A stretch of DNA of 64,000 bases from an uncultured bacterium (lineage in GTDB: Bacteria; Patescibacteriota; Minisyncoccia; Phycocordibacterales; GWA1-40-21). Of the stretch, positions 5,102 through 38,031 are shown piece by piece. The translations under genes were made by a program, and so were the position numbers. Numbering within the stretch: position 1 is the first letter of the stretch; each line of letters opens with the position of its first letter. Location of the stretch: positions 528,465 to 592,464 of the forward strand of contig CAWCTC010000001.1 of the NCBI GenBank assembly GCA_963798465.1. The letters run 5' to 3'. The notes beneath the pieces were generated by a model that saw only the letters and a program-made list of their open reading frames with translations, was not told the DNA's origin and did no database searches.

Positions 5102-5129
5102 TTTATTAAAATCAAATCAAACCAAAAAA

Positions 5130-6583: not shown

Positions 6584-7714
6584 TTAATTTTCATGCTGCA
6601 GGCCGATTTTTATTATTTCATGAGCTATCAGATCAGCTGCATCGCCTTTTATAAAACTCTTTGCACCTTCGCTCATTTTTTTCTGCAGATTGTTATCATC
6701 CATAATTCTAGTAATTTCAGAAAGCAATATATTCGGCGAAAGGTTAATTTCTTCTATGACGATTGCTCCGCCTGATCTCGCATAGTTGTAAGCATTCTGC
6801 CTTTGATGATCTCCATTCGTATCTGCAATCGGAATAATTATGCTAGGAATTCCCCAGTATGCAATTTCAAAAATTGCCGAACCGGCTCTTGAAACAATCA
6901 AGCTTGAAGCGCCTGCAGACATACTCATATTCAAATCGTCAAGATAATCAAACGGTCTGTATCTGTTTTTCAGTTTATTATCTGTCAAAACTACGCCGGA
7001 AGTTCCCAAAACTTCTTCAATATTTGCCTTTCCAACTTGATGAATAACATAATATTTTTCGACAAGAGCCGGTAATATACTCATAATCTGATCATTTATA
7101 ATTTTTGCGCCAAGCGATCCGCCCAAAATAAGTATCGTTGGAATATCTTCCATCAAATTTAAAAATTTTCTTGCATCATCTCTAGCAGGAAGCATTTGGA
7201 TGCTTTTTCTTACAGGATTTCCGGTAACCGCAACTTTTTTGGAATCAAAATATTTTGCGGCTTCGGGATAAGAAACGGCAACCCTTTGTGCAAATTTTGC
7301 CGCCCAGGCATTTGTCCTTCCTGGCGCGCTGTCTGATTCATGTACTACCACAGGTATCCTCAATATTTTTGCGGCAAACAGAACAGGAAAACTTGAATAA
7401 GCTCCTTTGCTAAAAATAACGTCGGGATAAAGATTGAAAACTTTTATTGTCGCGTCTATCACTCCGAAAAATGTTTTGAAAAAATCAAAAAAATTAAGTA
7501 TGGAAAAATATCTTCTGGATTTGCCAGCAGAAATTTTTATATATTCGATATTATTTTCTAAAAGCATATCGGCATCATGCGGAGAATCCGACATATAAAA
7601 AAGCTGTATCGGAAGAAGTTTTTCATCCTTTACGATTTTATTTATCGATTCGGCAACCGCTATGAGAGGATAAAAATGTCCGCCTGTGCCTCCTCCTGTT
7701 AAAAGAATTTTCAT
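6584..7714 (-). CDS. murG: Lipid II-forming UDP-GlcNAc transferase MurG
   Basis: N-terminus MKILLTGGGTGGHFYPLIAV, 376 aa, and it follows ftsW in a dcw-type cluster. Confidence 0.93.
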   Translation of the reverse strand: MKILLTGGGTGGHFYPLIAVAESINKIVKDEKLLPIQLFYMSDSPHDADMLLENNIEYIKISAGKSRRYFSILNFFDFFKTFFGVIDATIKVFNLYPDVIFSKGAYSSFPVLFAAKILRIPVVVHESDSAPGRTNAWAAKFAQRVAVSYPEAAKYFDSKKVAVTGNPVRKSIQMLPARDDARKFLNLMEDIPTILILGGSLGAKIINDQIMSILPALVEKYYVIHQVGKANIEEVLGTSGVVLTDNKLKNRYRPFDYLDDLNMSMSAGASSLIVSRAGSAIFEIAYWGIPSIIIPIADTNGDHQRQNAYNYARSGGAIVIEEINLSPNILLSEITRIMDDNNLQKKMSEGAKSFIKGDAADLIAHEIIKIGLQHEN

Positions 7715-7717
7715 TTA

Positions 7718-7852
7718 CCCGAGAAAATTTTTGCCGATAAAAATCACTGTTTCGACAAAACAGCGATATATGTTATTCTTTTTGATTAATTTTGTCATCA
7801 TTGCGGGTTGTAAATAATAATTTTTAGAAACGTCGACAAAAACTTTAACAGG
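7718..7852 (+). repeat. MITE-like element, family C, copy 1 (imperfect terminal inverted repeats)
   Basis: Termini are CCCGAGAAAATTTTTGCCGA and TCGACAAAAACTTTAACAGG; the reverse complement of the right end aligns with the left end. It is nearly identical to copy 2 at 8982-9117. It fills the ftsW-murG spacer and stops 3 nt from the murG start codon. Confidence 0.85.
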
Positions 7853-7868
7853 TGAATTATTTTTTAAA

Positions 7869-8978
7869 TCAAGCTTTTTTATTAAATCTGGACACGCTTA
7901 AAATTATTCCTATTTGAACCAAAAGTATGAACATTGCGGTTCCTCCTTGGCTGAAAAAAGCCAAAGGCAATCCTGAAAAAGGAACGATGCCCAATACTGA
8001 AGCTATATTTATAAAAGACTGCAGTATCGTAAGTATAACAATTCCGAACACCAAAAGTCCACCGAAAGGATCAACAGATTTTATAGCTATTCTAAAACCG
8101 AAAAATACGAAAAATAAAAATAAGATTATTATAGAAACACATCCGACAAAGCCCAGCTCCTCGCCAAGCACGGCAAAAATCGTGTCGCTTATCGACTCCG
8201 GAAGAAATTGATATTTTTGAATGCTCTGTCCCAAACCTTTTCCAAAAATCTCTCCGGAACCGACGGCGATCAAGGATTGCTGAACTTGATATCCGGCATT
8301 TTGAGAATCGGCTGACGGATGTATAAAAGTTTGTATTCTCGACATGACATACGGTCTGGTAAAAGCCAAAATCGCTATGCAGATTATTCCAAGTGCGCCC
8401 AAAATAAAAACATATTTGATTTTTCCACCGGCAATTATGAACATTGAGATTAGTGCAATACAAATAATTACAAAGGAATCCGTATCAGGCTGAGCCAAAA
8501 GAAGAGCACCGACAATACCCATGATGACAAGCAGAGGCACAAAACCGAATTTGAAAGTTGAAACTTTTTCTTTTATCGATGAAAGCCATGCAGCCCAATA
8601 GACAATTACGCCTATATTCAATATTTCAACAGGTTGGAAAGAAAAACCGAAGATGGAAATCCATCTTTTTGCGAAAGTATTGAGATTTGTCCCGATATGA
8701 GGAACAAAAACCAAAGCAGTAAAAATCAATGAACCTATTAAGATAGGAAAAGAATATTTTTTAAGAATTTTATAATCTATTTTTATAAAAATAAAACATG
8801 CCAGTCCGCCGAGGATTATCCCGAAAAATATCTGCTTGAAAACCACGGATGCAAATTGAGTGCTGTTTTTTGCAAGTATTCCCATGGAAGCCGAAACAAA
8901 AATAGTAAAGCCGATAACCATGAGAATGATTACTATTCCAAGAAAAACTTTATCGATTCCTTTGCTGTTTGATGACAT
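7869..8978 (-). CDS. ftsW: SEDS-family peptidoglycan polymerase FtsW/RodA
   Basis: 369 aa, about 10 TM helices, located between mraY and murG. Confidence 0.9.
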   Translation of the reverse strand: MSSNSKGIDKVFLGIVIILMVIGFTIFVSASMGILAKNSTQFASVVFKQIFFGIILGGLACFIFIKIDYKILKKYSFPILIGSLIFTALVFVPHIGTNLNTFAKRWISIFGFSFQPVEILNIGVIVYWAAWLSSIKEKVSTFKFGFVPLLVIMGIVGALLLAQPDTDSFVIICIALISMFIIAGGKIKYVFILGALGIICIAILAFTRPYVMSRIQTFIHPSADSQNAGYQVQQSLIAVGSGEIFGKGLGQSIQKYQFLPESISDTIFAVLGEELGFVGCVSIIILFLFFVFFGFRIAIKSVDPFGGLLVFGIVILTILQSFINIASVLGIVPFSGLPLAFFSQGGTAMFILLVQIGIILSVSRFNKKA

Positions 8979-8981
8979 TTA

Positions 8982-9117
8982 CCCGAGAAAATTTTTGCCG
9001 ATAAAAATTACTGTTTCGGCAAAACAGCAATATACGTTATTCTTTTTGATTAATTTTGTCATCATTGCGGATTTTTAAATAATAATTTTTAGAAACGTCG
9101 ACAAAAACTTTAGCGGG
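8982..9117 (+). repeat. MITE-like element, family C, copy 2
   Basis: Termini are CCCGAGAAAATTTTTGCCGA and CGACAAAAACTTTAGCGGG. It fills the mraY-ftsW spacer and begins 3 nt from the ftsW start codon (..GACATTTA|CCCGAG). Confidence 0.85.
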
Positions 9118-9118
9118 T

Positions 9119-10195
9119 TTATATTTTTATCAAAGCCAAAATTACGCCGAATATCGCACAGACGATTCCAACGACCCAATATCTCATTGTGACTTTGGAC
9201 GCTGGCCAGCCTTTCGCTTCAAAATGGTGATGGACCGGAGCAACCAGAAAAACCTTTTTACCATGCCTGAATTTTTTTGAACAGACTTGTATTATCACCG
9301 ATAGAGAAGTTACAACTAAAGGAAATGCTATAATCGGCAAAACTGCGATTCCTCTTCCATCGCCCATTGAGTCCGTCATGAAAGCGACTATCGCTAAAGT
9401 GATTGTAAGCGCCATGCTTCCCGTCTCTGACATATAAAATCTTGCCGGCGGAATATTAAACCAGAGAAATGCCAGAATTGCACCGACGAGAACTGCGCAG
9501 AAAGCTGCAAGATTTATCTGATTTTGAAAAAATGCAATACCGGCGTATGCGGCAAAGATAGAAGCAAAAACTCCTCCGGCAAGCCCGTCTATTCCATCAA
9601 TAACTCCGCCTGAATAAATAAATAAAGTTATGAGAACGAAAACAGGAATAAACCATAGGCCCAAGATTGTTTTGCCCATAAAAGGAATGCTTATGCTATT
9701 TACATCCAATTTAAAATAAAACCAAAGAGAAATTAAAAATGAAATTATTCCGACAAAAAACAATCTCTTTTTTAAAGAAAGTCCGCCGGCATAATTTCCG
9801 CCACCGCCTTTTATTTCCAAAACATCATCTACAAGACCTACAATAGCTCCGAGAAAAAGTACAGAAAGAGGAATCCATGTTTGATCTCTGCTTAAAAAAT
9901 CCAGTTTGGAAAAAATACTTCCTGGAAATAAATGGCTGAACAGCCAGAAAACTAAAGTTGTAACAATTGCCGACATCCAAATCAATATTCCACCCATTCT
10001 CGGTGTGCTTACTTCCCTTTCTGCGTGCAAACTGCTGAAAATCGGCGTGCCTCCACCATCTATTGAAACGCTTTTGACTTTCTTCTTCCACATTTTATTC
10101 CTGTATAAAAATTCTGTAAGCAAAGGAGCGGAAAACATTCCGATAATGAAAGCTATTATTGATGGCAGGATTACTTTTACTAAATCGATTTGCAT
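9119..10195 (-). CDS. mraY: Phospho-N-acetylmuramoyl-pentapeptide transferase MraY
   Basis: 358-aa polytopic protein with motifs GLVDDVLEIKGG, VIDGIDGLAGG and APVHHHFE. Confidence 0.95.
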   Translation of the reverse strand: MQIDLVKVILPSIIAFIIGMFSAPLLTEFLYRNKMWKKKVKSVSIDGGGTPIFSSLHAEREVSTPRMGGILIWMSAIVTTLVFWLFSHLFPGSIFSKLDFLSRDQTWIPLSVLFLGAIVGLVDDVLEIKGGGGNYAGGLSLKKRLFFVGIISFLISLWFYFKLDVNSISIPFMGKTILGLWFIPVFVLITLFIYSGGVIDGIDGLAGGVFASIFAAYAGIAFFQNQINLAAFCAVLVGAILAFLWFNIPPARFYMSETGSMALTITLAIVAFMTDSMGDGRGIAVLPIIAFPLVVTSLSVIIQVCSKKFRHGKKVFLVAPVHHHFEAKGWPASKVTMRYWVVGIVCAIFGVILALIKI

Positions 10196-15346: not shown

Positions 15347-17182
15347 TTATTTATAACCCTCAGCCTGCAAATTAAATAATCTTGCATATTCGCCATTCAA
15401 TTTCATAAGTTCTTCGTGGGTGCCGTCTTCACGAACTCTGCCTTCATCTATCACAATAATCCTGTCCGCAGTTCTAACGGTAGAAAATCTGTGCGAAATT
15501 AATATGACCGTTTTTTCTTTTGGAAGTTTTGCAAGAGATTCAAATATTTTTGACTCCGCATCAGCATCAATAGAAGAAGTCGGCTCGTCGAGAATCCAAA
15601 TCTTCGGGTCACGATAAAACAATCTGGCAATTCCCAATTTCTGCCATTGTCCTCCGGAAGGCTCAACTCCATCTTTGAAAATTTTCCCGAGCTGTTGGTC
15701 ATATTTATGATCCCATTTTTCTATGAAAACTGCATCGGCGCTTCTTGCGGAAGAAATCATTTTATTTTCATCATAAGGTTTTTTGACATCGCCGAAACTT
15801 ATGAGCTCGCTAACTTTTGTAAAATCAAATTTTGCAAAATCCTGGAAAAGAATGCCAATATTTTCGTACCATAAATCTCTTTTTAAAGTTTTTATATTTT
15901 TTCCATCAACTAAAATTTTCCCTTTATCCGGATCGTAAAAACGGCAAATCAATTTTACAAGAGTTGTTTTTCCAGCGCCGTTCAATCCCACGATTGCAAG
16001 CTTTTCGCCTGGAGGAATTTTCAAAGATAAATTTTCGTAAACATTTTTCTTGCCTCCGGGATAAGAAAAAGAAACTCCTTCAAAAACAATTTCCGGAGCT
16101 TTGCCGGTATCTTCCAATTTATCGTTGCCGTCAATTATCTTGTCTTTTATCTTCAGAAAAGTCGAGAGATCATGAATATAAAGTCTGTCTTCCTGCTGAC
16201 TGCCAATACTAGAAAACAGTGCATTGATGGAATTCTGAAAACCGACCATGCCTCCAAAAATAAATATAACCGTACCTGCCTGCATACTTCCCACAAGCGC
16301 CATTTTCGTAAAATAAATTATTGAGAACAAAAGCATTCCTTGGCTTAGAATTGTTGCAAACATCTGTTCAAGCAGATATTTATTTTCATTTTTCAACTGC
16401 TTATTTTCCACGCCAGTGATAAAATCATTTATTTTGCCGACAAATTTTTTGCCAAGACCAAATAATTTTATTTCCGTCAATGATGACAATGATTGTATAA
16501 AATTTTTCACAGACCAAAATTTTTCTCTCTCGTCATTATCAATATCGTCTCCCCAAATATACCATCCGCGTTTTCCATAATTTGTGCTTATAATCAATTG
16601 AGGTATTGAGGCCAAAAAAATCAAAACAAATATTAACAGAGATTGTTTTGCTATGATTACCGATGCAAAAATCACAGTAATAACGCTCTGATAATCGTAA
16701 AAAATATTAGTCAATATATTGCTTATTACATGAGTTCCTTTCTGATTAATTCTGTTTACAAAATTATTGAATTCGGTATTTTCATACTGTTGTACATACA
16801 CTTCTATTCTTTTTTGCGCCATCAAAAGGTCGAAATGCTTTGACAGGAAAAAATAGACGACTTTCGTGAAAAAGTTCTGAAAAATATATAAGAATGCCGG
16901 AATAATAAGCGAAGCGCCGAGAAGAGACAGAGAAAATATAACAGCTTTTTTATTTACAGTGTGACCTATAGAATTGACAATGGTATTCACCAGAACTCCA
17001 TTTGCATATGCCTGAAATAGCGAAGCTAGCGCAATGCAAGTCGAAACAAAAAACAATGACGTCAAAATCACATAGTGTTTTTTCCATACTATTTTGAACA
17101 GCCAAGCAATATCTTTAAAAAAATCTTTCCAATGGCTCAGCACTTTTATATTCTTTTTTTCAATTTTTTCTTCTTCAAGCAT
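15347..17182 (-). CDS. ABC exporter, fused permease/ATPase (MsbA-type half transporter)
   Basis: 611 aa with an N-terminal 6-TM domain, Walker A GLNGAGKTT, signature SGGQWQKL and Walker B ILDEPTSSID. Confidence 0.9.
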   Translation of the reverse strand: MLEEEKIEKKNIKVLSHWKDFFKDIAWLFKIVWKKHYVILTSLFFVSTCIALASLFQAYANGVLVNTIVNSIGHTVNKKAVIFSLSLLGASLIIPAFLYIFQNFFTKVVYFFLSKHFDLLMAQKRIEVYVQQYENTEFNNFVNRINQKGTHVISNILTNIFYDYQSVITVIFASVIIAKQSLLIFVLIFLASIPQLIISTNYGKRGWYIWGDDIDNDEREKFWSVKNFIQSLSSLTEIKLFGLGKKFVGKINDFITGVENKQLKNENKYLLEQMFATILSQGMLLFSIIYFTKMALVGSMQAGTVIFIFGGMVGFQNSINALFSSIGSQQEDRLYIHDLSTFLKIKDKIIDGNDKLEDTGKAPEIVFEGVSFSYPGGKKNVYENLSLKIPPGEKLAIVGLNGAGKTTLVKLICRFYDPDKGKILVDGKNIKTLKRDLWYENIGILFQDFAKFDFTKVSELISFGDVKKPYDENKMISSARSADAVFIEKWDHKYDQQLGKIFKDGVEPSGGQWQKLGIARLFYRDPKIWILDEPTSSIDADAESKIFESLAKLPKEKTVILISHRFSTVRTADRIIVIDEGRVREDGTHEELMKLNGEYARLFNLQAEGYK

Positions 17183-17241
17183 AAATAAAAAAGCTTCTTC
17201 AGCTCAGGACAGTATTAAAGCACACTTTATAAATTAGTAAA

Positions 17242-18228
17242 TTAATAAATTTCCACACCGACTTTTTCGCGGATTTCTTTCATTTTCTTTTCAGCGTTCA
17301 TTGAAGCTCTTTTTCCGCCCTCTTTCAGAATATCGAGGACTGAATCCATATCTTTGGCGAGCATTTCCCTTTTTTCTCTCATAGGCTTTATGAAAGAAAT
17401 CAAATCTTTAATGAGTAATTCTTTTGCCTCCTTGTAACCCATTCCGCCTTTCTCGTATCTTTCTTTTAACGGTTTTGTATTCTCTGCGCTCAAAAATAAT
17501 TTATGGATTGCAAACAAAATCGATTCATCTGGATTTTTCGATTCATCTATACCTTTTGAATCTGTTGGAATTTTCATAACAGCTTTTTTTATTTCTTCGT
17601 CAGTAGCAAAAAGCGGAATTACATTGTCATAACTCTTACTCATTTTTCTGCCGTCTATTCCAGGAACCGTTTCAACGTGTGTGAGAATAAGTGGTTTGGG
17701 AAGTTTAAAAGTCTCGCCATAAGCATTGTTAAACTTCTGTGCTATATCACGTGCGTATTCTATGTGTTGTTTTTGATCCTGACCTACGGGAACGATATCT
17801 GCATCTTGTATCAAAATATCAGAAGCCATAAGAATTGGATAATCAAAAAGTCCAACGTTCACATCTTTACCTTTTACTTGTGCATCTTTATAAGCATGTG
17901 CTCTTTCTAAATAAGGAACGGTTGTAAGACAATTAAATATCCAGGTAAGCTCTGCTACTTCTTGAACATCGGATTGTTTAAATAAAATAACTTTTTTTGG
18001 ATCAAGACCAACAGCCAAATAATCTAAGGCTACATCAATAATCCCTTTTGAAAGTTCTTCTTTATTTTGAACTGTAGTCATTGCATGATAGTCAGCAATA
18101 AAAATATAACAATCAAATTCATCTTGTAAATCAACAAATTGTTTCATCGCTCCAAAATAGTTTCCTATATGAACTCTTCCTGTTGGTTTGACTCCAGATA
18201 AAAGTATTTTTTTTGATTCTTTTGACAT
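17242..18228 (-). CDS. trpS: Tryptophanyl-tRNA synthetase
   Basis: 328 aa with a HIGH-type motif (GRVHIGNY) and KMSKS (GRKMSKSY). Confidence 0.95.
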   Translation of the reverse strand: MSKESKKILLSGVKPTGRVHIGNYFGAMKQFVDLQDEFDCYIFIADYHAMTTVQNKEELSKGIIDVALDYLAVGLDPKKVILFKQSDVQEVAELTWIFNCLTTVPYLERAHAYKDAQVKGKDVNVGLFDYPILMASDILIQDADIVPVGQDQKQHIEYARDIAQKFNNAYGETFKLPKPLILTHVETVPGIDGRKMSKSYDNVIPLFATDEEIKKAVMKIPTDSKGIDESKNPDESILFAIHKLFLSAENTKPLKERYEKGGMGYKEAKELLIKDLISFIKPMREKREMLAKDMDSVLDILKEGGKRASMNAEKKMKEIREKVGVEIY

Positions 18229-18313
18229 AAGAATAATATATCAGAAAAAGCATATATTTAAAAGAAATAAAATGTTATAAATCAATGGTTTAAATGATAT
18301 TATAGTCAAAACT

Positions 18314-19390
18314 ATGAACATAACCATAAATAATGTTTTTCTTTCAAATCTGATTATCATGTCGATTCTTGCAATCGCGATATTACTTTCTATTAAAAAG
18401 AAGGATAATTTTGACATGCTTTCAATCTCGGTAACCCAAGAATTAAAAGGGTTGGCCATTTTAGGCGTCATTTTTTGCCACATTGGCTATTTCCTATCTA
18501 CAAATCATAATTTTTTATTTCCGTTGTCTATTATATCCGGAATAAGTGTTGATCTTTTTTTATTTTTATCCGGCTTTGGCTTGACAATGAGTGCGCTTAA
18601 GAAAGATATATCTATACCAAAATTCTATAAAAAAAATCTACCAAAACTTTATGTTCCATTTTGGATTACTTTGATTATTTTATTTTTAATGAGTTTTTTC
18701 ATTGCACACATCGGTTATTCTTTTTCATACATAATAAAATCATTTGCCGGAATTTTTACTACAGCCGATATTTTTAAAGACCTCAATTCCCCGCTCTGGT
18801 TTTTCACTCTTATAGTTTTTTATTATTTATTATTTCCGCTACTTTTTTCAAAAAAGAAACCTTGGATTTCTGCGACAATAATTTTTCTTATTACTTTCAT
18901 ACTAACCAAGTTCAATTTAATAAACGGAGTAAACGAATTATACTGTGCACATATTGTCGCTTTTCCGCTTGGAATAATAATTGCCTCAATATTATCAAAT
19001 GAAAAAATCACTGGAAATATAAAAAATATAATTTCAAAAATGAACTGGCTTTTTTATTTTCTAACTTTACTAATATCAATGTCTGTTTTTTCTTTGCTAG
19101 CATATTTCTCCGGTTCTGGGCAAGGAGTATTTGTAAAAGACTCTATAAGCATAATCGCAATGCTTTCCATCATAATTTTCTTTATTATCAAAAAATTTGA
19201 TATCAAAATATTTTATATTCTCGGATTATATTCTTATGAAATATATTTGCTTCACTGGCCAATTATGTATCACTATGATTTTATTTATAAATTTGTTCCG
19301 GCATGGCTTGCAACAACTTTATATATAATAATTTTCCTTGGACTTGGCTTCTTACTTAAAAAAGTTTCAGACAACATAACTAAAAAATAA
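18314..19390 (+). CDS. Membrane acyltransferase (Acyltransferase_3 / OatA-like family)
   Basis: 358 aa with about 10 TM helices and blocks GLAILGVIFCHIGYF and YSYEIYLLHWP. It is one of the few plus-strand genes. Confidence 0.7.
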   Translation: MNITINNVFLSNLIIMSILAIAILLSIKKKDNFDMLSISVTQELKGLAILGVIFCHIGYFLSTNHNFLFPLSIISGISVDLFLFLSGFGLTMSALKKDISIPKFYKKNLPKLYVPFWITLIILFLMSFFIAHIGYSFSYIIKSFAGIFTTADIFKDLNSPLWFFTLIVFYYLLFPLLFSKKKPWISATIIFLITFILTKFNLINGVNELYCAHIVAFPLGIIIASILSNEKITGNIKNIISKMNWLFYFLTLLISMSVFSLLAYFSGSGQGVFVKDSISIIAMLSIIIFFIIKKFDIKIFYILGLYSYEIYLLHWPIMYHYDFIYKFVPAWLATTLYIIIFLGLGFLLKKVSDNITKK

Positions 19391-19400
19391 TTAAATAAAT

Positions 19401-19437
19401 AAAAATAGGCGGCACGCTTCGCGTGCCGCCTATTTTT
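19401..19437. terminator. Bidirectional rho-independent terminator
   Basis: AAAAATAGGCGGCACGC-TTC-GCGTGCCGCCTATTTTT lies between the convergent acyltransferase and dnaJ genes. Confidence 0.85.
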
Positions 19438-19438
19438 A

Positions 19439-20527
19439 TTATATTCCCTCTTCTTTTAATTTTTCAAAATCTTTTTTCGCTTTTCCAGAAAGTCGGCTTG
19501 GAATTTTGATATTCAATTTGACTAGCAAATCCCCTCTTTTATCAGCCGACGTAGGCACTCCTTTGCCTCTAATACGCAATATTTGCCCGAATTCAGCCCC
19601 TTCAGGAACCTTGAGTTCTATCTCTCCGTCGAGCGTTTTAAGGCTATATTTGGCCCCCAAAATAGCATCGGTAAGTTTGATGTTCAATTCCGTCACAAGA
19701 TTTTTCCCTTCTTTTTTAAACAGCGAATCTTTTCTGACATGAATTTTTATGTACAAATCTCCAGAGCTTCCGCCTTTCAAAGATTCTCCCGCGCCAGAAA
19801 GTCTAACAGTTTCTCCGTCATTTATATCTGCTGGAATTTTCACGGAAAATGATTCTTCTTTTTTTTCAATTCCCGATCCAGAACAGTTCGAACATTTTTC
19901 TTTTGGAATTTTTCCAGTTCCTTCGCAAACTTCGCAAACTCTTTCCGTCACTATCGGACCGAGAAAAGATCTTTTTGTTTCGCGGACTCTTCCTTGTCCT
20001 CCGCATTCATGGCACATCTGCATCTGCGTTCCGCTTTTTGCACCGGTTCCGTTGCAGACTTTGCATTTTGAATTTTTAGTCAGGCGAATTGTTTTTTCAA
20101 CTCCAAAAACAGATTCAGAAAAAGTGAGCTCCAAGTCAACATGAATATCTCTTCCTTTTTTCGGCCTGCTTCTTTGCGACGAACCTCCGCCAAAAAAATC
20201 TCCAAAAATATCGCCGAGATCAAAATCTACATTTTGTCCGCCTTGGAAACCGGAAAAATCAAATCCTTCAAAACCATTACCACCTTGGTATTGCTGTCCT
20301 CCAAATCCGCCAGCACCAGGTCCAGCACTTCCGTATGAATCATATTGTGCCCTTTTGTTGTCATCAGAAAGCACACTGTAAGCTTCACTTACTTCTTTAA
20401 ATTTTTCGGCATTTCCGCCTTTGTCCGGATGATGTTCCATTGCAAGTTTTCTGAAAGCTTTTTTAACATCTTCCTTACTTGCACTTTTATCAATACCGAG
20501 TGTTTTGTAATAATCTTTGTTGGCCAT
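19439..20527 (-). CDS. dnaJ: Chaperone DnaJ
   Basis: J-domain HPD ([10 protein letters not shown]), a G/F-rich linker, and four CxxCxGxG zinc motifs. Confidence 0.97.
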
Positions 20528-20541
20528 GATGTTTTTTGTAT

Positions 20542-20570
20542 GTCTTTGCGAGCGTAGCGAAGCAATCTAG
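20542..20570 (+). repeat. GTCAT-hairpin-CCAG module (A type), forward orientation; left arm flanking the GIY-YIG gene
   Basis: GTCTTTGCGAGCGTAGCGAAGCAATCTAG. Its end overlaps the GIY-YIG stop codon. Confidence 0.85.
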
Positions 20571-20857
20571 ATTTGATCAGTTAAATCATTCCATTCAGGA
20601 TTATTTTTTTCAATTAAATCTAGCTTTTTTCTTCTTGAACCCGCTTTTATTTGTTTTTCTCTTTCTATCGCACCTAACATTATCTCGCATGCTTCGTAAT
20701 ATACTAATGTATGAATGTTATATTTTTTTGTAAAACCATCGTTTTTATTTTCTTTATGCTCTTTTACTCTTCTCTTTAAATCAGAGGTTACTCCTGTATA
20801 TAATGTTCCATTTCTTTGACTTGCCATTATATAGATACATGGAATTTTGTCTTTCAT
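20567..20857 (-). CDS. Small stand-alone GIY-YIG nuclease (UPF0213/YhbQ-like)
   Basis: 96 aa with PCIYIMASQRNGTLYTGVTSDLKRRVKEHK (GIY..YIG-type block) and a conserved E in LGAIEREKQIK. It is inserted between dnaK and dnaJ. Confidence 0.85.
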   Translation of the reverse strand: MKDKIPCIYIMASQRNGTLYTGVTSDLKRRVKEHKENKNDGFTKKYNIHTLVYYEACEIMLGAIEREKQIKAGSRRKKLDLIEKNNPEWNDLTDQI

Positions 20858-20873
20858 AATTTTTCTATTTTCC

Positions 20874-20936
20874 CTGGATCACCACGCTTCGCTCGTGATG
20901 ACAAGCCTGGTTTGCTTCGCTTTCGCTCGCAATGAC
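20874..20936 (-). repeat. Two tandem GTCAT-hairpin-CCAG modules in reverse orientation (right arms flanking the GIY-YIG gene)
   Basis: CTGGATCACCACGCTTCGCTCGTGATGAC (20874-20902) and CTGGTTTGCTTCGCTTTCGCTCGCAATGAC (20907-20936). The second ends exactly at the dnaK stop codon. Confidence 0.85.
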
Positions 20937-22850
20937 TTACTTCTGACCTTCCTCTCCTTTCTCTTTGTATTCTGCGTCTTTGATATTGTCTCCAGATTTA
21001 TCCCCTGCCTTTTCTTCAGTTCCCGCTGTTTGTCCAGGAGCTTCTTTCTGAGCTTTTGCCATTGCTTCACCGATTTTTTGCATCTCTGTTGAAAGCGCTT
21101 CTGTTTTTGTTTTAATTGCGCTAGCATCTGTGCCATCTTTTACAGCTTTCAAATCGGAAATTTTATCTTCGACTCCTTTTACAACATCGGCTGGAATTTT
21201 TCCGCCATTATCTTTGATAGCTTTTTCTGCAGTGTAAATCATCTGTTCGGCAATATTTTTTGCTTCAACAGATTCTTTTTTCTTTGCATCTTCCGCCGCA
21301 TTCATTTCAGCTTCTTTTTTCATTCTTTCAATATCTTCTTTTTTCAAACCGGAGCTTGCTTCAATTCTGATTGATTGTTCTTTTCCAGAAGTTTTATCTT
21401 TTGCTTTAACATTCAAGATTCCGTTTGCATCAATGTCAAAAGTAACTTCAACTTGTGGCATTCCTCTAGGTGCTGGTGGTATTCCATCAAGAATAAATTT
21501 ACCAAGGCTCTTGTTATCAGACGCCATTGGTCTTTCTCCTTGAACGATGTGAATTTCTACAGAAGTTTGATTATCTGCAGCGGTTGAAAATACTTGGCTT
21601 CTTGAAGTTGGAATTGTTGTATTTTTTTCTACAAGGTGCGTTGCAACTCCGCCCATGGTTTCAATTCCAAGCGCAAGCGGAATAACATCAAGCAAAAGAA
21701 CATCTTTTACATCACCTCTCAAAATTCCTCCTTGAACCGCGGCGCCAAGCGCGACAACTTCATCAGGATTTACTGAAAGGTTTGGCTCTCTTCCGAATAA
21801 TTCTTTTACAGCAGCGACGATAGCCGGCATTCTTGTCTGACCTCCAACCATTATTACTTCGTTCAAATCTGCAATTTTAAAAGGCGAAGCGTCAATCGCT
21901 CTTTTTGCAATCATGATTGATCTGTCGATGAATTCTTTCGTTAGATTTTCTAAAGTCGCTCTTGAAAGTTTTATCAGCAAATGTTTTGGACCTGAAGCGT
22001 CTGATGTGACAAATGGAATATTTATTTCTGTTTCAAGTGCCGTTGAAAGTTCAATCTTTGCTTTTTCAGCAGCTTCATCAAGTCTTTGAAGTGAAAGCGG
22101 ATCTTTTCTCAAATCGATTCCATTTTCTTTCATGAATTGATCAGCCATAAAGTCTACGATTTTTCTGTCGATGTCACGGCCTCCCAAGTGCGAGTCTCCG
22201 TCAGTTGAGCGAACTTCAATTACAGAATCTCCGATTTCAAGAATTGAAATATCGAAAGTTCCTCCGCCGAAATCGTAAACTGCGATTTTTTCATTTGTTT
22301 TTTTGTTGAGTCCGTAAGCGAGAGCTGCGGCCGTTGGCTCGTTTATAATTCTCAAAACATTTAATCCGGCAATCTGTCCAGCATCTTTTGTCGCTTGTCT
22401 TTGCGAGTCATTGAAATAAGCCGGCACTGTGATAACAGCGTCAGTTATTTTTTCTCCGAGTCTTGCTTCCGCATCAGCTTTTAATTTTCCCAAAATCATC
22501 GCGGAAATTTCTTCCGGTCTGTATTTTTTATCAGCCATTGTTATTTCAACTCCGCCATTTGCAGCTTTTGAAATATCAAATGAGACTGAAGTCTTGTCTT
22601 TCTGAACTCCTGGATCATCGTATTGATGTCCCATGAATCTTTTTACCTGAAAAACTGTATTCTTTGGATTCGTGACAGCTTGGCGTCTTGCCAAAAGTCC
22701 GACAAGTTTTTCGCCTGTCTTTGTCGTAGCGACAATTGACGGAGTCGTTCTTGCACCTTCCGCATTTTCAATTATCTTCGGAGCATTTCCTTCCATCACA
22801 GCCATCGCTGAGAATGTCGTTCCTAAGTCTATTCCTAATATTTTTGACAT
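20937..22850 (-). CDS. dnaK: Chaperone DnaK (Hsp70)
   Basis: 637 aa with [19 protein letters not shown] and VGGQTRMP motifs. Confidence 0.98.
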
Positions 22851-22893
22851 AATTTTATTTTAATTAATTTTATATTTTATAAAAAATCACTTT

Positions 22894-23052
22894 GTCATTC
22901 CCGCGGATGCGGGAATCCAGGTTAAATTGTATGTCTTTGCGAGGAGTATAGTGACGAAGCAATCCAGAATTAGTAGCGTCGCACTTATAGGACGGTTGTG
23001 CGACGTGACTTCGCTAAGTCAACCTGGGTTGCCACGCTTCGCTCGCAATGAC
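22894..23052. repeat. Composite cluster of three hairpin modules plus an extra hairpin
   Basis: The parts are: 22894-22920 GTCATTCCCGCGGATGCGGGAATCCAG (B type, forward); 22933-22967 GTCTTTGCGAGG..GACGAAGCAATCCAG (A type, long loop, forward); hairpin GTCGCAC..GTGCGAC at 22978-23004; and 23024-23052 CTGGGTTGCCACGCTTCGCTCGCAATGAC (reverse). Confidence 0.8.
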
Positions 23053-23063
23053 AATACAAAAAA

Positions 23064-23363
23064 TTATAAATTAGGAGCTCTTGTTGGTTGTGCGACAACA
23101 AATGATAAATCTTTTACCAAACTTAATATATCTGCAAAAAACGGACTGACAATCGGCTTAAAAGTTTCCGTTTCAAAATAAACTGGCAGTGCGAGAACTT
23201 CTTCTTGAGTTATGACATTTTCTTCAATAAGTTTTCCACAAACTGCTTTGGCAGTTATTTTTCCATTTATTTCAGTCAATTCAAAAACAACCAAAGCCAA
23301 AGAACCATTTGGCAATGTTATGGTTTTCTTTATGAATTTAGATTGTTTTTGTAAAGCTAACAT
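23064..23363 (-). CDS. Hypothetical protein (99 aa)
   Basis: An ORF only, with no motif I recognise. It is co-oriented between dnaK and the 611-aa gene and is bounded by repeat modules. Confidence 0.45.
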   Translation of the reverse strand: MLALQKQSKFIKKTITLPNGSLALVVFELTEINGKITAKAVCGKLIEENVITQEEVLALPVYFETETFKPIVSPFFADILSLVKDLSFVVAQPTRAPNL

Positions 23364-23387
23364 ATATTTATTATAACAATATTATTT

Positions 23388-23445
23388 ATCTTTGCGAGCG
23401 AAGCGAAGCAATCCAGAACCTAGTTTGCTTCGCTTTGCTCGTAAG
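23388..23445. repeat. Head-to-head pair of A-type modules (right arm degenerate)
   Basis: ATCTTTGCGAGCGAAGCGAAGCAATCCAG-AAC-CTAGTTTGCTTCGCTTTGCTCGTAAG. Confidence 0.8.
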
Positions 23446-23560
23446 AAATTTTGGTCGCTCACATATTCACCTACTACCAAAATTAGTATATCAAAAAAAA
23501 TTTTAAGAACAAAGTTCTAAGTATCTAAGTACTAGATCTAAGTTACAAAAGAGATAAGTG

Positions 23561-25396
23561 CTAAGACTTGCGAGGCACACGGAACACAAACTCGTAGTTG
23601 TCAACCCACCTATCGTCAGGCTTAGCGTAGAAGCTGTCCAGCCCCAGCTTGCCATCGTCGTTGCGGTACACATCGAACACGCCCGGGTAGCCACCGGAGC
23701 CGGAAATTTGTTTCATGCCTACTCTAAAATAATCTCCATTTGGTTGGTCGAGATATTGTAAACGAAGTTGAGGTCCGACTTCTGCTGGACATAATTCTAA
23801 GCCGAGCTTTTTTGCTTTTTCATATATTTCATCTGTCGTGGCTCCATTTGGAAAACCTAAATCTTTTACTGAGATTCTAACTAGATTGAGATGCTCTTGT
23901 TTTTTTGAAGTAGTAAAATCACGATTATCCATCATTGATTTGGCATAATCAGAAATCCAAACTTTATTTTCTTCCATTTCCTTGATTAATTCTTTTTTAT
24001 TTTTTCCACCTATTTCAGCTTCCATTTTCTTTATGGAACTTTCAGGAAATGACGTGTAAATATTTTCTATATCTGTTTTAAAAATATCTTTAAAGAGTGG
24101 GCCGATATAAGCTTTGGTATCTTTTGATATTTCTTTTTCACTATGAGCGATTTGCTCTGGTTTACAGTCTAGAACAATAGGCGCATCTTCTTGCGGATTC
24201 CTTTCTGATATGATTTCTTCAATTCTCGGGTCTCTTTGATAACCAAAGCCTTCTATTTTATTATTAATTTCATAAATAAATATAAGCTCATCTTTGTTTA
24301 GTTGTTCACCTTTTTTAGTTTTATTTTCTATTTTTGTGAGAAGCTTCATGTCTGCTTCTTTTTTTTCATATTGTTTTCCATCGGGGAATTTGGCAAGTTT
24401 TTCTTTTACAACATCACCAATATATGGGTCCATGTTTTGGTCATGAGCTATACCTCTTACTTCTCCAATATTATCTCCTTGCATACGAATAGCAACTCTA
24501 GGAATAGTTGGCTTTCCTTCTTTATCATTTGAATAATATACATAGAAGTCTCCGCCTTTTAGCTGAGCTTCTGCTGTTGATTCTCCTGCTGTACACCAAC
24601 CAGTTCCGTAACCTTGAAGTGAATTTACAAGTGGCATGTGATCTGAGTTTTGGTCGTATTTAATCCATTCACCTTCTGTTGTTTCAAGTTCGTTCTTTTC
24701 TGTTGGAGTTACTTTTTCTATGGCATAAGCGTAAAGTTTACCGAAGCTCGCACCATCTAGAAGTTGTTTTAATTCTGGATTATTATCTGTGGCTTCTATC
24801 TTTTCATTATTTGCTTTTTTGATAATTGCATCTACAACGTACGCTAAAGCTTCTCTGTTTATATCAGGAAATGGTGCAACTGTGCCTTTGTCTCTTTTTG
24901 CAAAAGTGTGTTTTTCTTTATCAAACGTAGAAAGCTTGAGCATGCTTGTGAATGCCCAATACTTTGCCCACATAGGGTATGCGTCTGCGTCTGGAGAAGT
25001 GAAATAATTAGTCCAGTTGTCTAAGGTGGTTTCTTGGTCTTTTACAACAACTTCACTGAGTTGCTTTCGCATTTCTTCTGTAATATCAATGTCGCCGTGA
25101 CCTTGTTCACGAGCTAATCGCTTTTGGTTTTCATAATAACCTTCTGGGATTTCATTTGGGTCAATGACATATTCTTTATGATAATATTCTTTGATTCTTT
25201 CTAATACACGAGGATCATCTCTGTGTCCTGTGTGAGTTTGTTTTATGACTTCAAGCCAGTCAGATATCTTTTCTGCTGGTTTTTGTGAGGTTTCTTCATC
25301 ACGGGCTTCGAGTCTTTCTTTTTCATGTTCAACAGCTTCACTTGTGTGAAGTTTTGGGTCTCTCTTGTGTAAAAATTGTTCGCCGAAGTTTTCCAT
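23561..25396 (-). CDS. Hypothetical protein (611 aa) with compositionally foreign 3' end
   Basis: A long clean ORF with no signal peptide and a charged, helical N-terminus. It has a central block GYGTGWCTAGESTAEAQLKGGDFYVYYS and no family I can name. Confidence 0.6.
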   Translation of the reverse strand: MENFGEQFLHKRDPKLHTSEAVEHEKERLEARDEETSQKPAEKISDWLEVIKQTHTGHRDDPRVLERIKEYYHKEYVIDPNEIPEGYYENQKRLAREQGHGDIDITEEMRKQLSEVVVKDQETTLDNWTNYFTSPDADAYPMWAKYWAFTSMLKLSTFDKEKHTFAKRDKGTVAPFPDINREALAYVVDAIIKKANNEKIEATDNNPELKQLLDGASFGKLYAYAIEKVTPTEKNELETTEGEWIKYDQNSDHMPLVNSLQGYGTGWCTAGESTAEAQLKGGDFYVYYSNDKEGKPTIPRVAIRMQGDNIGEVRGIAHDQNMDPYIGDVVKEKLAKFPDGKQYEKKEADMKLLTKIENKTKKGEQLNKDELIFIYEINNKIEGFGYQRDPRIEEIISERNPQEDAPIVLDCKPEQIAHSEKEISKDTKAYIGPLFKDIFKTDIENIYTSFPESSIKKMEAEIGGKNKKELIKEMEENKVWISDYAKSMMDNRDFTTSKKQEHLNLVRISVKDLGFPNGATTDEIYEKAKKLGLELCPAEVGPQLRLQYLDQPNGDYFRVGMKQISGSGGYPGVFDVYRNDDGKLGLDSFYAKPDDRWVDNYEFVFRVPRKS

Positions 25397-25435
25397 ATGT
25401 TTATTATATCAAATTATTAATATATTTTATTTCTT

Positions 25436-25496
25436 GTCTTTGCGAGCGAAGCGAAGCAATCCAGAACCTAGTTTGCTTCGCTTCGCTCGCAATGAC
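25436..25496. repeat. Perfect head-to-head pair of A-type modules (60-nt palindrome)
   Basis: GTCTTTGCGAGCGAAGCGAAGCAATCCAG-AAC-CTAGTTTGCTTCGCTTCGCTCGCAATGAC. The 20-nt arms TTGCGAGCGAAGCGAAGCAA and TTGCTTCGCTTCGCTCGCAA are exact complements. It ends exactly at the grpE stop. Confidence 0.9.
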
Positions 25497-26120
25497 CTAT
25501 TTCTTAAACTCTGCCACAACCACCTGAGCAGCTTTCATTACTCTGTCATTTAAAATATAACCTTTCTTTTTTACTTCCGTTATTATTCCGTCTTTTTTTT
25601 CATCTTCTGTTGCAACATGCTCGACTGCAACATGGAATTTCGGATCAAATTTTTCTCCGATTGGATTCATTACTTTGAAATTATTCTCATCGAGAATCTT
25701 CAAAAGCTGAGTGTGAATATATTCCACACCTATTCTCCAATTCTTATCTACTTTTTCCCAAGCTTCCTTGTTTGAAAAAGCCATTTCAAAACTGTCGAGA
25801 ACCTGCGTGATTTCTTCAAGCAAACTTTCATTTGCATATTTTATAACTTCAACTTTTTCATTTTCAATTCTCTTTTTGTAATTAATGAAATCGGCTCTTT
25901 CTCTTTGCCAGCCATCAAGATTTTCCTGTTTTTCTTTTTCAAGAATTTTTATCTTTTCTTTCAGCTTTTTAACAAGCGCTTCTGGAGCTTCATTTTCTTC
26001 GTCCACGACAACATCATCAACCTGCTTTTTAGAGGTCTTTTTGCTTGCCACGAGGTCATCAGACTTTTCGTGGCCTTCTTCTTCGTATATTATATCGTCA
26101 TTAATATCGTTTTTATTCAT
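25497..26120 (-). CDS. grpE: Nucleotide exchange factor GrpE
   Basis: 207 aa with an acidic N-terminus, a coiled coil, and a C-terminal GrpE block (FDPKFHVAVEHV..GYILNDRVMKAAQVVV). Confidence 0.93.
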   Translation of the reverse strand: MNKNDINDDIIYEEEGHEKSDDLVASKKTSKKQVDDVVVDEENEAPEALVKKLKEKIKILEKEKQENLDGWQRERADFINYKKRIENEKVEVIKYANESLLEEITQVLDSFEMAFSNKEAWEKVDKNWRIGVEYIHTQLLKILDENNFKVMNPIGEKFDPKFHVAVEHVATEDEKKDGIITEVKKKGYILNDRVMKAAQVVVAEFKK

Positions 26121-26277
26121 CCTATTTAGAAATTATAACAACTATACTTATATTAAAATCTGTCCTATTTTCAATAAAAATCAACTTTTCCTTGTGTCTT
26201 TCTACCCTGTGAATTTCTAACAGGACAAGTATTTATAGGTATTTTATCATATTTTTTATAATAATCAAATTTGGTGC

Positions 26278-26305
26278 TTGACGAAATAAATTAATATGTT
26301 ATGAT
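26278..26305 (+). promoter_or_regulatory. Near-consensus sigma70-type promoter with extended -10
   Basis: TTGACG (26278-83), a 16-nt spacer ending in TGT, then TATGAT (26300-05). No plus-strand ORF lies downstream. Confidence 0.65.
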
Positions 26306-28010: not shown

Positions 28011-28039
28011 CTGGTTTGCTTCGCTTTCGCTCGCAATGA
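28011..28039 (-). repeat. Solo A-type module (reverse orientation) in the rpoA-rplQ spacer
   Basis: CTGGTTTGCTTCGCTTTCGCTCGCAATGAA, ending 2 nt from the rpoA stop codon. Confidence 0.8.
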
Positions 28040-28041
28040 AA

Positions 28042-35717: not shown

Positions 35718-36299
35718 TTATTTTTCAAATCTTTTTTCCACTTCCTTCCAATTTATATTTTCCACAAATACATTTATATAGGCAGCTCTTTTAATTCCAT
35801 AGTCCGTCATGTAAGCATGTTCAAAAACATCCATCACAAGGAGCGGCACAGCTCCTGCAAAATGACCGACGTCGTGCTCGTTGATCCAGACATTGAACAA
35901 TCTTCCGGTTTCGGCATCATGATACAAAACTACCCAGCCGATTCCTCGCATCGCTGCCATTGATCTGAAATCTTTTTCCCAAAATTCAATCGAGCCAAAT
36001 TCTTTTATAATACTTTTGGACAATTCGGAATCTTTTTCCATCGGAACAAAATTTTCCGTCATGTTTCCAAAATAAAGTTCATGCAATCTCATGCCGTTCC
36101 ATTCCCAGCCAAGTCGGCGATTTAATTCCGCATATTCTGGCGTGCCAAATTTGTCGTCTTTTTCCATAGCAACTAAAATATCATTTAACTTATTGAAATT
36201 GGTAACGTAACCAGCATAAAGCGTAAAATGATTTGAAAGCATTGTATCGCTCAAACCTTTTATTCCAAGCAAACTATTAAAATCTTTTTGTAAGTACAT
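35718..36299 (-). CDS. Fe/Mn-type superoxide dismutase family protein
   Basis: 193 aa. The four metal-ligand positions can be aligned by eye (NHF.., LHELYF, DVFEHAYM). Confidence 0.8.
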   Translation of the reverse strand: MYLQKDFNSLLGIKGLSDTMLSNHFTLYAGYVTNFNKLNDILVAMEKDDKFGTPEYAELNRRLGWEWNGMRLHELYFGNMTENFVPMEKDSELSKSIIKEFGSIEFWEKDFRSMAAMRGIGWVVLYHDAETGRLFNVWINEHDVGHFAGAVPLLVMDVFEHAYMTDYGIKRAAYINVFVENINWKEVEKRFEK

Positions 36300-36307
36300 A
36301 TTTTTGT

Positions 36308-36380
36308 GTCATTCCCGCGGAGGTGGGAATCTATTCTTAAAAATTAATCAATGCTGGATTCCCACCTCCGCGGGAATGAC
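36308..36380. repeat. Head-to-head pair of B-type modules with 22-nt spacer
   Basis: GTCATTCCCGCGGAGGTGGGAATC ... CTGGATTCCCACCTCCGCGGGAATGAC. The 24-nt arms are exact complements, and each arm contains ATTCCC-N8-GGGAAT. Confidence 0.9.
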
Positions 36381-36997: not shown

Positions 36998-37864
36998 TTA
37001 TTTCTTTCCGAATTTTTCCCTGCAATGCTCGCAAAGTCCGTTCACTTCATCCTGGATAGATTTTATTTTTCTGTCATCAAAGTTGACGCTCTTCAATAAT
37101 TCGGTATTCAAAAGATTTTTGGACAATATTATTCCTTTTGAAAGAAACAGATTCTTATCAGATGTTGTCAGCGTCGTCAGAGCTGTCAGAGGAATAAGCT
37201 CGTATTTTTCTATCATGTCATGAAGATTATTGTCATAAGGATAATTCCATCCGACAAATTTTAAGGCAGGCTGGCATTGGCCATACTGAATAGCTGTCGC
37301 ACTGAATTTTGTATTTGTAATCACCCAGCCTTCGGTCAATTTTCTTTTTTCTCCGCCATAGAAATATTCCTGTCCAAAGATATCGTCGTATCTGGCTTTG
37401 ACATAAAGAACAATTTTCAAATCCGATTTCAGATTGAAATCTGTGTGGAATTTCGCTTCAACCATTATAAGCTCGCCCGGTTTCCAAGCAACTATGTCAA
37501 CTTCATGCGGAACGCATTTTCCCTGGACTATCTGATCCGTCAAAGTTTCATAGCCTTCAGCTTTAAAAATCTCTGCAACAAATTTTTCAAAAGGAAAACC
37601 TGTCGGACCAAGCTGGGCTATGGCTTTTTTTAAAGAATATCTGACGGCGATAGGCCTCTGGTTTTTTTTCAAAATTGAAAAAGCCTGCCTGTAAATATCT
37701 TGAGTTGAAACAACCAGTTTTGTTTTTGCTTCCAAACTTATTTCAGATACGACGCGAGAAATAAGATCATCCGTCGCACCGGCTTTCTTTAGAGACATTT
37801 CAAGCTTTTTGTAATCAAAAAGCTCTTTTTCTCCATTATTTTTTATAACGTAAAATTCATTCAT
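36998..37864 (-). CDS. ATP-cone domain fused to a PD-(D/E)xK (Mrr-like restriction endonuclease) domain
   Basis: N-terminal VIKNNGEKELFDYKKLEMSLKKAG (ATP-cone-like). The central FEKFVAEIFKAEGYE..HEVDIVAWKPGELIMVEAKFH gives a D..E-x-K arrangement. There is a C-terminal CxxC. Confidence 0.65.
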   Translation of the reverse strand: MNEFYVIKNNGEKELFDYKKLEMSLKKAGATDDLISRVVSEISLEAKTKLVVSTQDIYRQAFSILKKNQRPIAVRYSLKKAIAQLGPTGFPFEKFVAEIFKAEGYETLTDQIVQGKCVPHEVDIVAWKPGELIMVEAKFHTDFNLKSDLKIVLYVKARYDDIFGQEYFYGGEKRKLTEGWVITNTKFSATAIQYGQCQPALKFVGWNYPYDNNLHDMIEKYELIPLTALTTLTTSDKNLFLSKGIILSKNLLNTELLKSVNFDDRKIKSIQDEVNGLCEHCREKFGKK

Positions 37865-37873
37865 GAGATTTAT

Positions 37874-38001
37874 CCGAGAAAATTTTTGTTGATGAAAATG
37901 TGTTGATGTTATATGACTTATACTTTTATGCAGATTTATCTTTTAAAAATGGTTCCTCTATCAGTTAATCATTTTCAACACGTCAACAAAAACTTTAACG
38001 G
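37874..38001 (+). repeat. MITE-like element, family C, copy 3 (divergent interior, longer inverted termini)
   Basis: CCGAGAAAATTTTTGTTGATGAAAATG ... CATTTTCAACACGTCAACAAAAACTTTAACGG. It begins 9 nt from the start codon of the ATP-cone/Mrr gene. Confidence 0.8.
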
Positions 38002-38031
38002 ACTAATAATAACAAAGATTGCTGCCGTCTG

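Follow-up and report, generated by a model that had tools for sequence, protein, structure and literature searches.

An SsnA-like GIY-YIG gene bracketed by probable Ssn-related motifs in the grpE-dnaK-dnaJ locus of a Candidatus Paceibacterota bacterium

Approximately half of the copies of the Neisseria repeat dRS3 form a longer oriented motif named NTS (CGTCATTCCCGCGMAVGCGGGAATCYRG), and, across phyla, NTS-like Ssn-related motifs (SRMs) are found beside homologs of ssnA (cd10448), a single-domain GIY-YIG gene encoding 94 aa (Chenal et al. 2025, Nat Commun, PMC11893778). At least one motif lies near 71% of the ssnA homologs, and 42% have a motif on both sides. The SsnA nuclease binds the motif solely as single-stranded DNA and cuts a few nucleotides upstream of it, is inactive on double-stranded DNA and RNA, and lowers transformation by motif-bearing DNA; the NTS-ssnA-NTS layout was likened by the same authors to an insertion sequence (PMC11893778). 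dRS3 is also a known integration site of the filamentous Nf phage of Neisseria, and NIMEs were described as Neisseria-specific (Bentley 2007, PMC1797815). Here we describe a 64-kb stretch (hereafter the window) of a 733-kb contig from a bacterium of the candidate phyla radiation (CPR), Candidatus Paceibacterota, in which short palindromic modules and a small GIY-YIG gene are interspersed with grpE, dnaK and dnaJ. Judged by sequence comparison, the modules are in all likelihood Ssn-related motifs (SRM/NTS-like) and the GIY-YIG gene probably encodes their cognate nuclease of the SsnA family. Neither CPR bacteria nor stop codons, beside which some of the modules stand, figure in PMC11893778.

The GIY-YIG gene lies between dnaK and dnaJ and encodes a single-domain protein of 96 aa whose sole Pfam match is GIY-YIG PF01541 (residues 7-78, E 2.6e-15). 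More than 8000 homologs of this protein were found, the relatives being 95-100 aa long, and the homolog from Nitrosomonas nitrosa is 68% identical to the window protein. Residues Y9, Y20 and E67 are spaced like the catalytic Y6, Y17 and E64 of N. meningitidis SsnA. The match to the UPF0213 structure 1zg2, which represents a different GIY-YIG family, was weak (E 1.8e-6), and a structure search found no solved structure of SsnA. The gene is flanked by inverted modules in an SRM-ssnA-SRM arrangement, with the upstream module 16 nt from the ATG and the TAG stop inside the downstream module. A reading of the DNA made from the sequence alone (the sequence-only reading) had treated this gene as one more insertion in the operon; its architecture, which recurs in relatives, identifies it instead as the probable cognate protein of the repeat family. 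The public gene call of this protein is 86 aa long and starts at an internal Met, and relatives favour the 96-aa start (MKDKIPCIYIM / MNEKIPCIYIM). N-terminal over-extensions of other ssnA homologs begin with module-encoded peptides, e.g. SLRAKRSNP. Together with the spurious ORFs that the modules generate, which the sequence-only reading had pointed out correctly, such false N termini of ssnA genes constitute an annotation hazard.

A profile built from ten modules found by eye recovered all ten and located 14 modules in the window, ten of them at 20542-25496 and four elsewhere (Table 1), among which were all those previously listed at 28011, 36308/36354 and 63374. In shuffled sequence, 0.00 matches to the A pattern and 0.01 to the B pattern are expected by chance. 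As had been claimed, no spacer between grpE and dnaJ is free of modules, and ten of the 14 modules lie within 5 kb of ssnA. All share the frame GTC(A/T)T...TC(C/T)AG and fall into three stem variants, A (ATTGCGAG..GAAGCAAT), B (ATTCCCGC..GCGGGAAT) and C (ATCACG..GGTGAT), in each of which complementarity is kept (ATTGC/GCAAT, ATTCCCGC/GCGGGAAT and ATCAC/GTGAT, respectively). Relatives display additional paired variants (ATTCCGGC/GCCGGAAT, ATACCGGC/GCCGGTAT and ATTCCTGC/GCAGGAAT). The proposal that stems vary by compensatory changes thus agrees with the three complementary variants seen by inspection, but gained no support from an unbiased count, for which no common register of the 3' ends was obtained; a filtered count is circular for pairing and serves solely as a list of stem variants.

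Through a search with the literal sequence, we came upon a gonococcal construct containing GTCATTCCCGCGAAAGCGGGAATCTAG ... CTGGATTCCCACTTTCGTGGGAATGAC, which is the Neisseria dRS3/NIME structure. Three B-type modules match the NTS consensus with at most four mismatches, and the module at 22893-22920 does so with three, all of them at the first base or in the loop. The 20-bp dRS3 core ATTCCC-N8-GGGAAT is present in 3 of the 14 window modules. As in the dRS3/NIME system (Parkhill 2000; Bentley 2007, PMC1797815), inverted repeats occur with short spacer units and flank variable or acquired genes; unlike that system, the window belongs to a different phylum, its arrays are short (2-3 repeats) and most of its repeats have another core. 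The one short NIME-like array occupies the spacer between the 99-aa gene and dnaK, where a spacer unit of 56 nt compares with the 50-150-bp RS units of NIME; this array is kept in a related contig, L233 (loci fetched for comparison carry L numbers).

The likeness to the Ssn/SRM system is broader. It comprises a single-domain GIY-YIG protein of ~95 aa, a gene flanked by inverted oriented GTC-palindrome-C repeats, clustering of the repeats near this gene and around other genes, a B repeat that is almost the Neisseria NTS, and occurrence in many phyla. Among 73 metagenomic loci encoding relatives of the window protein (57-81% identity, G+C 34-69%), 43 have GTCWY upstream and RWGAC downstream of the gene, and flanking inverted repeats with a score of 14 or more are present in 34, a score reached by none of the shuffled controls. 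ssnA is also bracketed by modules in L124 (Planctomycetota), L147 (Omnitrophota) and the high-GC locus L223, the stem variant differing by locus. Enrichment measured by fold z-score was modest, with 18-19 of 78 ssnA flanks compared to 2 of 78 inside the gene. In agreement with a link between modules and ssnA, the syntenic relative L001, which is devoid of modules, is also devoid of ssnA.

Several observations weigh against this identification. The published degenerate SRM string HGTCWYN(0-2)YYVSBRHN(0-5)WNVSBRGN(0-2)RNCYNB has no match in the window: the A type falls outside it, the TGCGAG stems violating YY, and a single loop base excludes the B type. This string was hand-built from 29 genomes (PMC11893778). 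Elsewhere the ssnA gene is found at few modules (3 among 120 loci from genomes, none among 107 viral loci); the close relative L237 has modules at the locus and no ssnA between dnaK and dnaJ; and single A modules are not predicted to be stable, folding like their shuffled counterparts. So small a number of module loci holding ssnA would be expected if copies lacking the gene are far more numerous than the gene itself. A phmmer search detected no GIY-YIG protein among the 107 viral module loci, and the ORFs within 2 kb of these modules, when clustered, consisted of phage structural genes with no recurrent enzyme or transposase family. The lack of a nuclease near viral modules indicates that the association is one-way: the gene comes with repeats, but the repeats do not generally come with the gene.

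The exact 25-mer GTCWTTGCGAGCGAAGCGAAGCAAW, representing the main variant, is present in 107 IMG/VR viral contigs with a G+C content of 35-71% and in at least 120 species-representative genomes of many phyla. Its hosts among the matches listed include Bradyrhizobium, Sphingomonadales, Rickettsiales, Legionellales, Coxiellaceae, Desulfomonilaceae, Planctomycetota, Zixibacteria, Omnitrophota, Chloroflexota, Bacteroidota, Ignavibacteria, Thermoanaerobaculia and Calothrix. Elsewhere, a short arm is usually paired with a longer inverted one (CTGGATTGCTTCGTCGCTTCGCTCCTCGCAATGAC) across a variable loop of 10-30 nt. The modules are therefore not confined to the window locus. Because the commonest variant, shared exactly across phyla and phages, escapes the published string, the published SRM counts are likely underestimates.

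The sequence-only reading proposed a REP-like family, and this was right in kind, since the modules are dispersed, oriented, palindromic, extragenic and polymorphic between relatives. The distribution of the 25-mer across phyla nevertheless argues against a lineage-specific REP. We regard it as very improbable that the modules are lineage-specific REP/BIME repeats with a RAYT (Y1) transposase, or mere targets of an IS110-type recombinase in the manner of dRS3 for Nf phage. The resemblance to REP/BIME with RAYT (IS200/IS605-related) is considerable, as both consist of extragenic palindromes with a conserved 5' head and frequent inverted pairs, both include a cognate gene with copies of the repeat on either side, and recognition is believed to take place on single-stranded hairpins; the established use of dRS3 as an Nf phage integration site (PMC1797815) gives the recombinase version its footing. 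However, the repeat-flanked gene of the window encodes a GIY-YIG nuclease and not an HUH/Y1 transposase, the head reads GTC where that of REP reads GTAG, the repeat is pan-bacterial, with no restriction to a species or lineage, and the viral loci revealed no recurrent transposase family beside the modules.

Comparison of close relatives documents gain and loss at the locus. L001 is syntenic with the window over 20.6 kb at 73-89% nucleotide identity and lacks any module, the GIY-YIG gene, the 611-aa gene located between grpE and the 99-aa gene, and a superoxide dismutase (SOD) gene described below. Its spacers measure 7 nt (rpoA|rplQ) and 9 nt (grpE|103-aa gene), and the window module between rpoA and rplQ is a clean 48-nt insertion relative to it. 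In contrast to L001, five related contigs (L231-L235) have the GIY-YIG gene at dnaK|dnaJ (81-89% identity), with a forward module a few nucleotides ahead of the ATG and a reverse module overlapping the TAG stop. The module pair after grpE is found in L231, L233, L236 and L237, and not in L001 or L232; in L236, the sequence of which ends ahead of the dnaK|dnaJ spacer, and in L237, the 611-aa gene (91% identity) follows the same TAG|GTCATT pair. The presence/absence polymorphism that had been suggested as a check is thus evident, modules being absent in syntenic L001 and present in other relatives. The locus is a patchwork that changes between close relatives, as would not be expected of a regulatory function conserved in the operon. 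The gene identities given earlier for the grpE-dnaK-dnaJ locus were borne out. It had also been stated that three extra genes break up the operon, and this does not hold for the 99-aa gene, which is native to the locus: L001 has its homolog directly after grpE, and it occupies the same place in every relative, the module-free one included. These close relatives, which differ in the presence of ssnA, of modules and of the 611-aa gene, provide a natural comparison set for the spread of the repeats.

These comparisons bear on a reading that agrees with ours on the identity of the system and differs on what drives the pattern. The unit could be a selfish IS-like transposon with a GIY-YIG "transposase", the single modules and pairs being MITE-like copies mobilised in trans and any host function being secondary. 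We give this a substantial chance, somewhat short of even. The IS-like layout, an analogy raised by the authors of PMC11893778 as well, the clean polymorphic insertions relative to L001 (48 nt at rpoA|rplQ and the whole ssnA unit), the near-identical 25-mers across phyla and phage contigs, and the 68% identity between the CPR and Nitrosomonas proteins all favour it. So does L124, a Planctomycetota metagenome-assembled genome sequence (CAYWBA010000025.1), in which a module-ssnA-module unit is located inside the 5' end of pheT (~4950-5620 of the locus). The start of pheT is directly duplicated there over 116 bp (99% identity) on the two sides of the unit, as a result of which an intact pheT follows the unit. 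On the other hand, no clear or consistent short target-site duplication was found at the window insertions, and ssnA resides at one site (dnaK|dnaJ) in all five related contigs, a pattern that looks vertical rather than actively mobile. Furthermore, we know of no GIY-YIG protein of the SsnA family with strand-transfer activity.

The sequence-only reading also inferred a preferred target just after stop codons. Its two exact abutments are correct in gene sense (TAG|GTCATT at grpE and TAA|GTCATT at dnaK), and the rpoA module is close to its stop as described, although the distance from the stop to the start of TTCATT is 1 nt and not 2 nt. In L231 and L233 the stops of grpE and dnaK are 1 nt from modules; the two exact abutments of the window were therefore inherited and do not represent independent insertions. 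All fetched loci together provided 317 non-redundant modules of the A type, and 131 of these have the end of a co-oriented ORF, 80 codons long or longer, within 60 nt upstream. The module-to-stop distance is even over 0-15 nt, with 2, 6, 5 and 4 modules at 0, 1, 2 and 3 nt, respectively, and ~2-8 per nt thereafter; both zeros come from the window. With no peak at distance 0 among the 317 modules, the proposed preference finds no support in the family as a whole. A stop was found within 15 nt of the GTC end in 60 of 270 cases and of the CAG end in 14 of 270, but we rejected this orientation bias as evidence of targeting because the pairs show GTC ends outward on both sides. Since the native spacers of this lineage are just 7-9 nt long, any tolerated insertion falls beside a stop. 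Stop abutment is best read as a product of compaction and inheritance, not of target preference. L124 likewise reads TAA|GTCATT, but there the stop closes the truncated pheT duplicate.

The designation of the modules as hairpins fits the B type and the inverted pairs, and not the single A modules. As RNA, the inverted pairs fold with -31 to -54.5 kcal/mol (z -7 to -12), the individual values being -31.0 kcal/mol for 23388-23448 (z -7.0), -45.5 for 25436-25496 (z -9.6) and -54.5 for 36308-36380 (z -12.2), and the single B-type module at 22894-22920 folds as DNA with -9.0 kcal/mol (z -4.6). The single A-type structure consists of a 4-5-bp closing stem around a GA-rich interior with GCGAAGC. In DNA, d(GCGAAGC) and tandem G·A pairs have an unusual stability that the energy rules used do not model; this stability may bear on the A modules.

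The inverted pairs would also form very stable hairpins in transcripts, three modules stand 0-1 nt from stops, and REP elements of Escherichia coli stabilise upstream mRNA. A function in RNA, in which the modules punctuate the operon as terminators, processing sites or 3'-end stabilisers after stops, would accommodate these facts, and a structural role at mRNA 3' ends had been put forward as an alternative by the sequence-only reading. We nevertheless consider it unlikely. The same operon exists without modules in syntenic L001, single A modules do not fold, modules occur in both orientations, and distances to the stop codon do not peak at zero in the family as a whole. T-runs are missing downstream of the modules, none of eight terminator-like sites in 19400-26300 coincides with a module, and the sole good terminator-like hairpin of the region is located after dnaJ, at 19400-19438. 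No Rfam family matched the modules at gathering or permissive thresholds, the search returning merely tRNAs and chance microRNA-like matches on long palindromes. Finally, N. meningitidis SsnA binds single-stranded DNA and does not bind RNA (PMC11893778).

By analogy with the characterised enzymes of Neisseria, N. elongata, N. wadsworthii and Wolbachia, we infer that the modules may be sites of single-strand DNA cutting in this organism. The ~95-aa protein would bind the oriented motif (5' GTC, palindrome, then C) in single-stranded DNA alone and is predicted to cut a few nucleotides 5' of it. With such motif-specific cutting, any single-stranded copy of these loci, whether arising from incoming transforming DNA or from replication or recombination intermediates, would be cleaved at the modules. 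In Neisseria, such cleavage lowers recombination of motif-bearing DNA (PMC11893778). The module-ssnA-inverted module unit, laid out like an insertion sequence, probably gave rise to the many gene-less singles and inverted pairs as dispersed derivatives clustered around ssnA; these come and go between close relatives and persist just in the tiny post-stop spacers of a compact genome.

The observation is real and biologically meaningful, yet the system published in 2025 accounts for it. Relative to that system, what is new here is the CPR host, the residence of ssnA in the hsp70 operon, where several relatives keep it, a dominant repeat variant (ATTGCGAG..GAAGCAAT) that the published string misses, and a set of relatives documenting gain and loss. 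The Ssn/SRM system is thereby extended to bacteria of the candidate phyla radiation. The genomes of CPR bacteria are very small, and these organisms are believed to rely on the uptake of DNA; a nuclease restricting incoming single-stranded DNA could be important in them.

The 611-aa gene is a member of a large family found in CPR bacteria. Its homologs in L238 and L239 stand beside bAvd and a reverse transcriptase gene, and the last ~130 nt of these homologs match a downstream template repeat from which they differ at template adenines. Such adenine-specific differences between variable region and template repeat are the signature of a diversity-generating retroelement (DGR). The 3' end of the window gene (23565-23700) aligns to the DGR variable region and has a G+C content of 59%, compared to ~36% in the rest of the gene. 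A template repeat, reverse transcriptase and Avd were all absent from the 64-kb window, which makes the 611-aa gene an orphan DGR-type variable protein gene.

The 611-aa gene is located between two direct copies of a module pair, and L231 and L233 have one pair and no gene; the two copies would fit an insertion by recombination at a pair. In comparison with L001, a gene for a 193-aa Fe/Mn SOD (35718-36299) is inserted between the UDG gene and alaS. A B-type pair is present on the upstream side only of the SOD gene, and pair and gene are both absent in L001. The position of these two genes raises the idea that module pairs are portable junctions that capture genes behind stops. A related idea is that the unit might be an active transposon with a GIY-YIG mobility enzyme, and ssnA in the heat-shock operon could couple single-stranded DNA cutting to stress. 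We regard these proposals as speculative and rather doubtful. If true, a GIY-YIG single-strand nuclease acting as mobility enzyme would constitute a transposase class not yet described.

Table 1 Genes of the grpE-dnaK-dnaJ locus and modules of the window, the modules being labelled as probable Ssn-related motifs (SRM).
Feature	Position	Strand	Details
dnaJ	19439-20527	minus	
A-type SRM, 3' of ssnA	20542-20570	+	GTCTTTGCGAGCGTAGCGAAGCAATCTAG; reverse relative to the gene, 14 nt ahead of the dnaJ start; same module and place in L231 and L232
96-aa GIY-YIG ORF (ssnA-like)	20567-20857	minus	between dnaK and dnaJ
SRM, 5' of ssnA	20874-20902	-	GTCATCACGAGCGAAGCGTGGTGATCCAG; stem ATCAC/GTGAT; 16 nt ahead of the ATG
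A-type SRM abutting the dnaK stop	20907-20936	-	TAA|GTCATT, stop at 20937-20939; L231 and L233 have the homologous module at 1 nt from this stop
dnaK	20937-22850	minus	
B-type SRM	22894-22920	+	Neisseria dRS3 core ATTCCC-N8-GGGAAT; 25/28 NTS consensus positions
Long-form A-type SRM	22933-22967	+	GTCTTTGCGAGGAGTATAGTGACGAAGCAATCCAG; other genomes usually have this long form as the partner arm
Inter-SRM spacer	22968-23023		own hairpin GTCGCAC..GTGCGAC; resembles the RS unit of a Neisseria NIME array; array kept in L233
A-type SRM	23024-23052	-	GTCATTGCGAGCGAAGCGTGGCAACCCAG; directly downstream of the 99-aa gene
99-aa ORF	23064-23363	minus	
Inverted SRM pair between the 611-aa and 99-aa genes	23388-23416, 23420-23448	+, -	outer arm degenerate; direct copy of the 25436-25496 pair
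611-aa ORF	23561-25396	minus	no Pfam match
Inverted SRM pair abutting the grpE stop	25436-25464, 25468-25496	+, -	TAG|GTCATT, stop at 25497-25499
grpE	25497-26120	minus	
Single A-type SRM between rpoA and rplQ	28011-28040	-	within the clean 48-nt insertion relative to L001
B-type inverted SRM pair	36308-36334, 36354-36380	+, -	between the UDG gene and the inserted SOD gene
Degenerate B-like module	63374-63399	+	no fold

Outside the module-bearing spacers, the region from dnaJ to the aspartyl-tRNA synthetase gene differs between the window (17238-19433) and L001 (14085-15860), and it contains no modules. In the window it includes an extra plus-strand ORF of 358 aa (18314-19390) with no NCBIfam match, at a place where relatives have an Acyl_transf_3 gene. 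A second 611-aa gene, encoding an ABC-type ATPase (15347-17182) and distinct from the ORF at 23561-25396, is found where L001 has ClpP. A sequence of 40-160 nt (..TTTACCCGAGAAAATTTTTGCCGATAAAAAT..), unrelated to the modules, recurs upstream of several minus-strand genes, at 7705-7868, 8969-9133 and 37860-38018. An ORF of 2365 aa (44173-51270) is rich in internal direct repeats of 237-300 nt and probably encodes a large repetitive surface protein.

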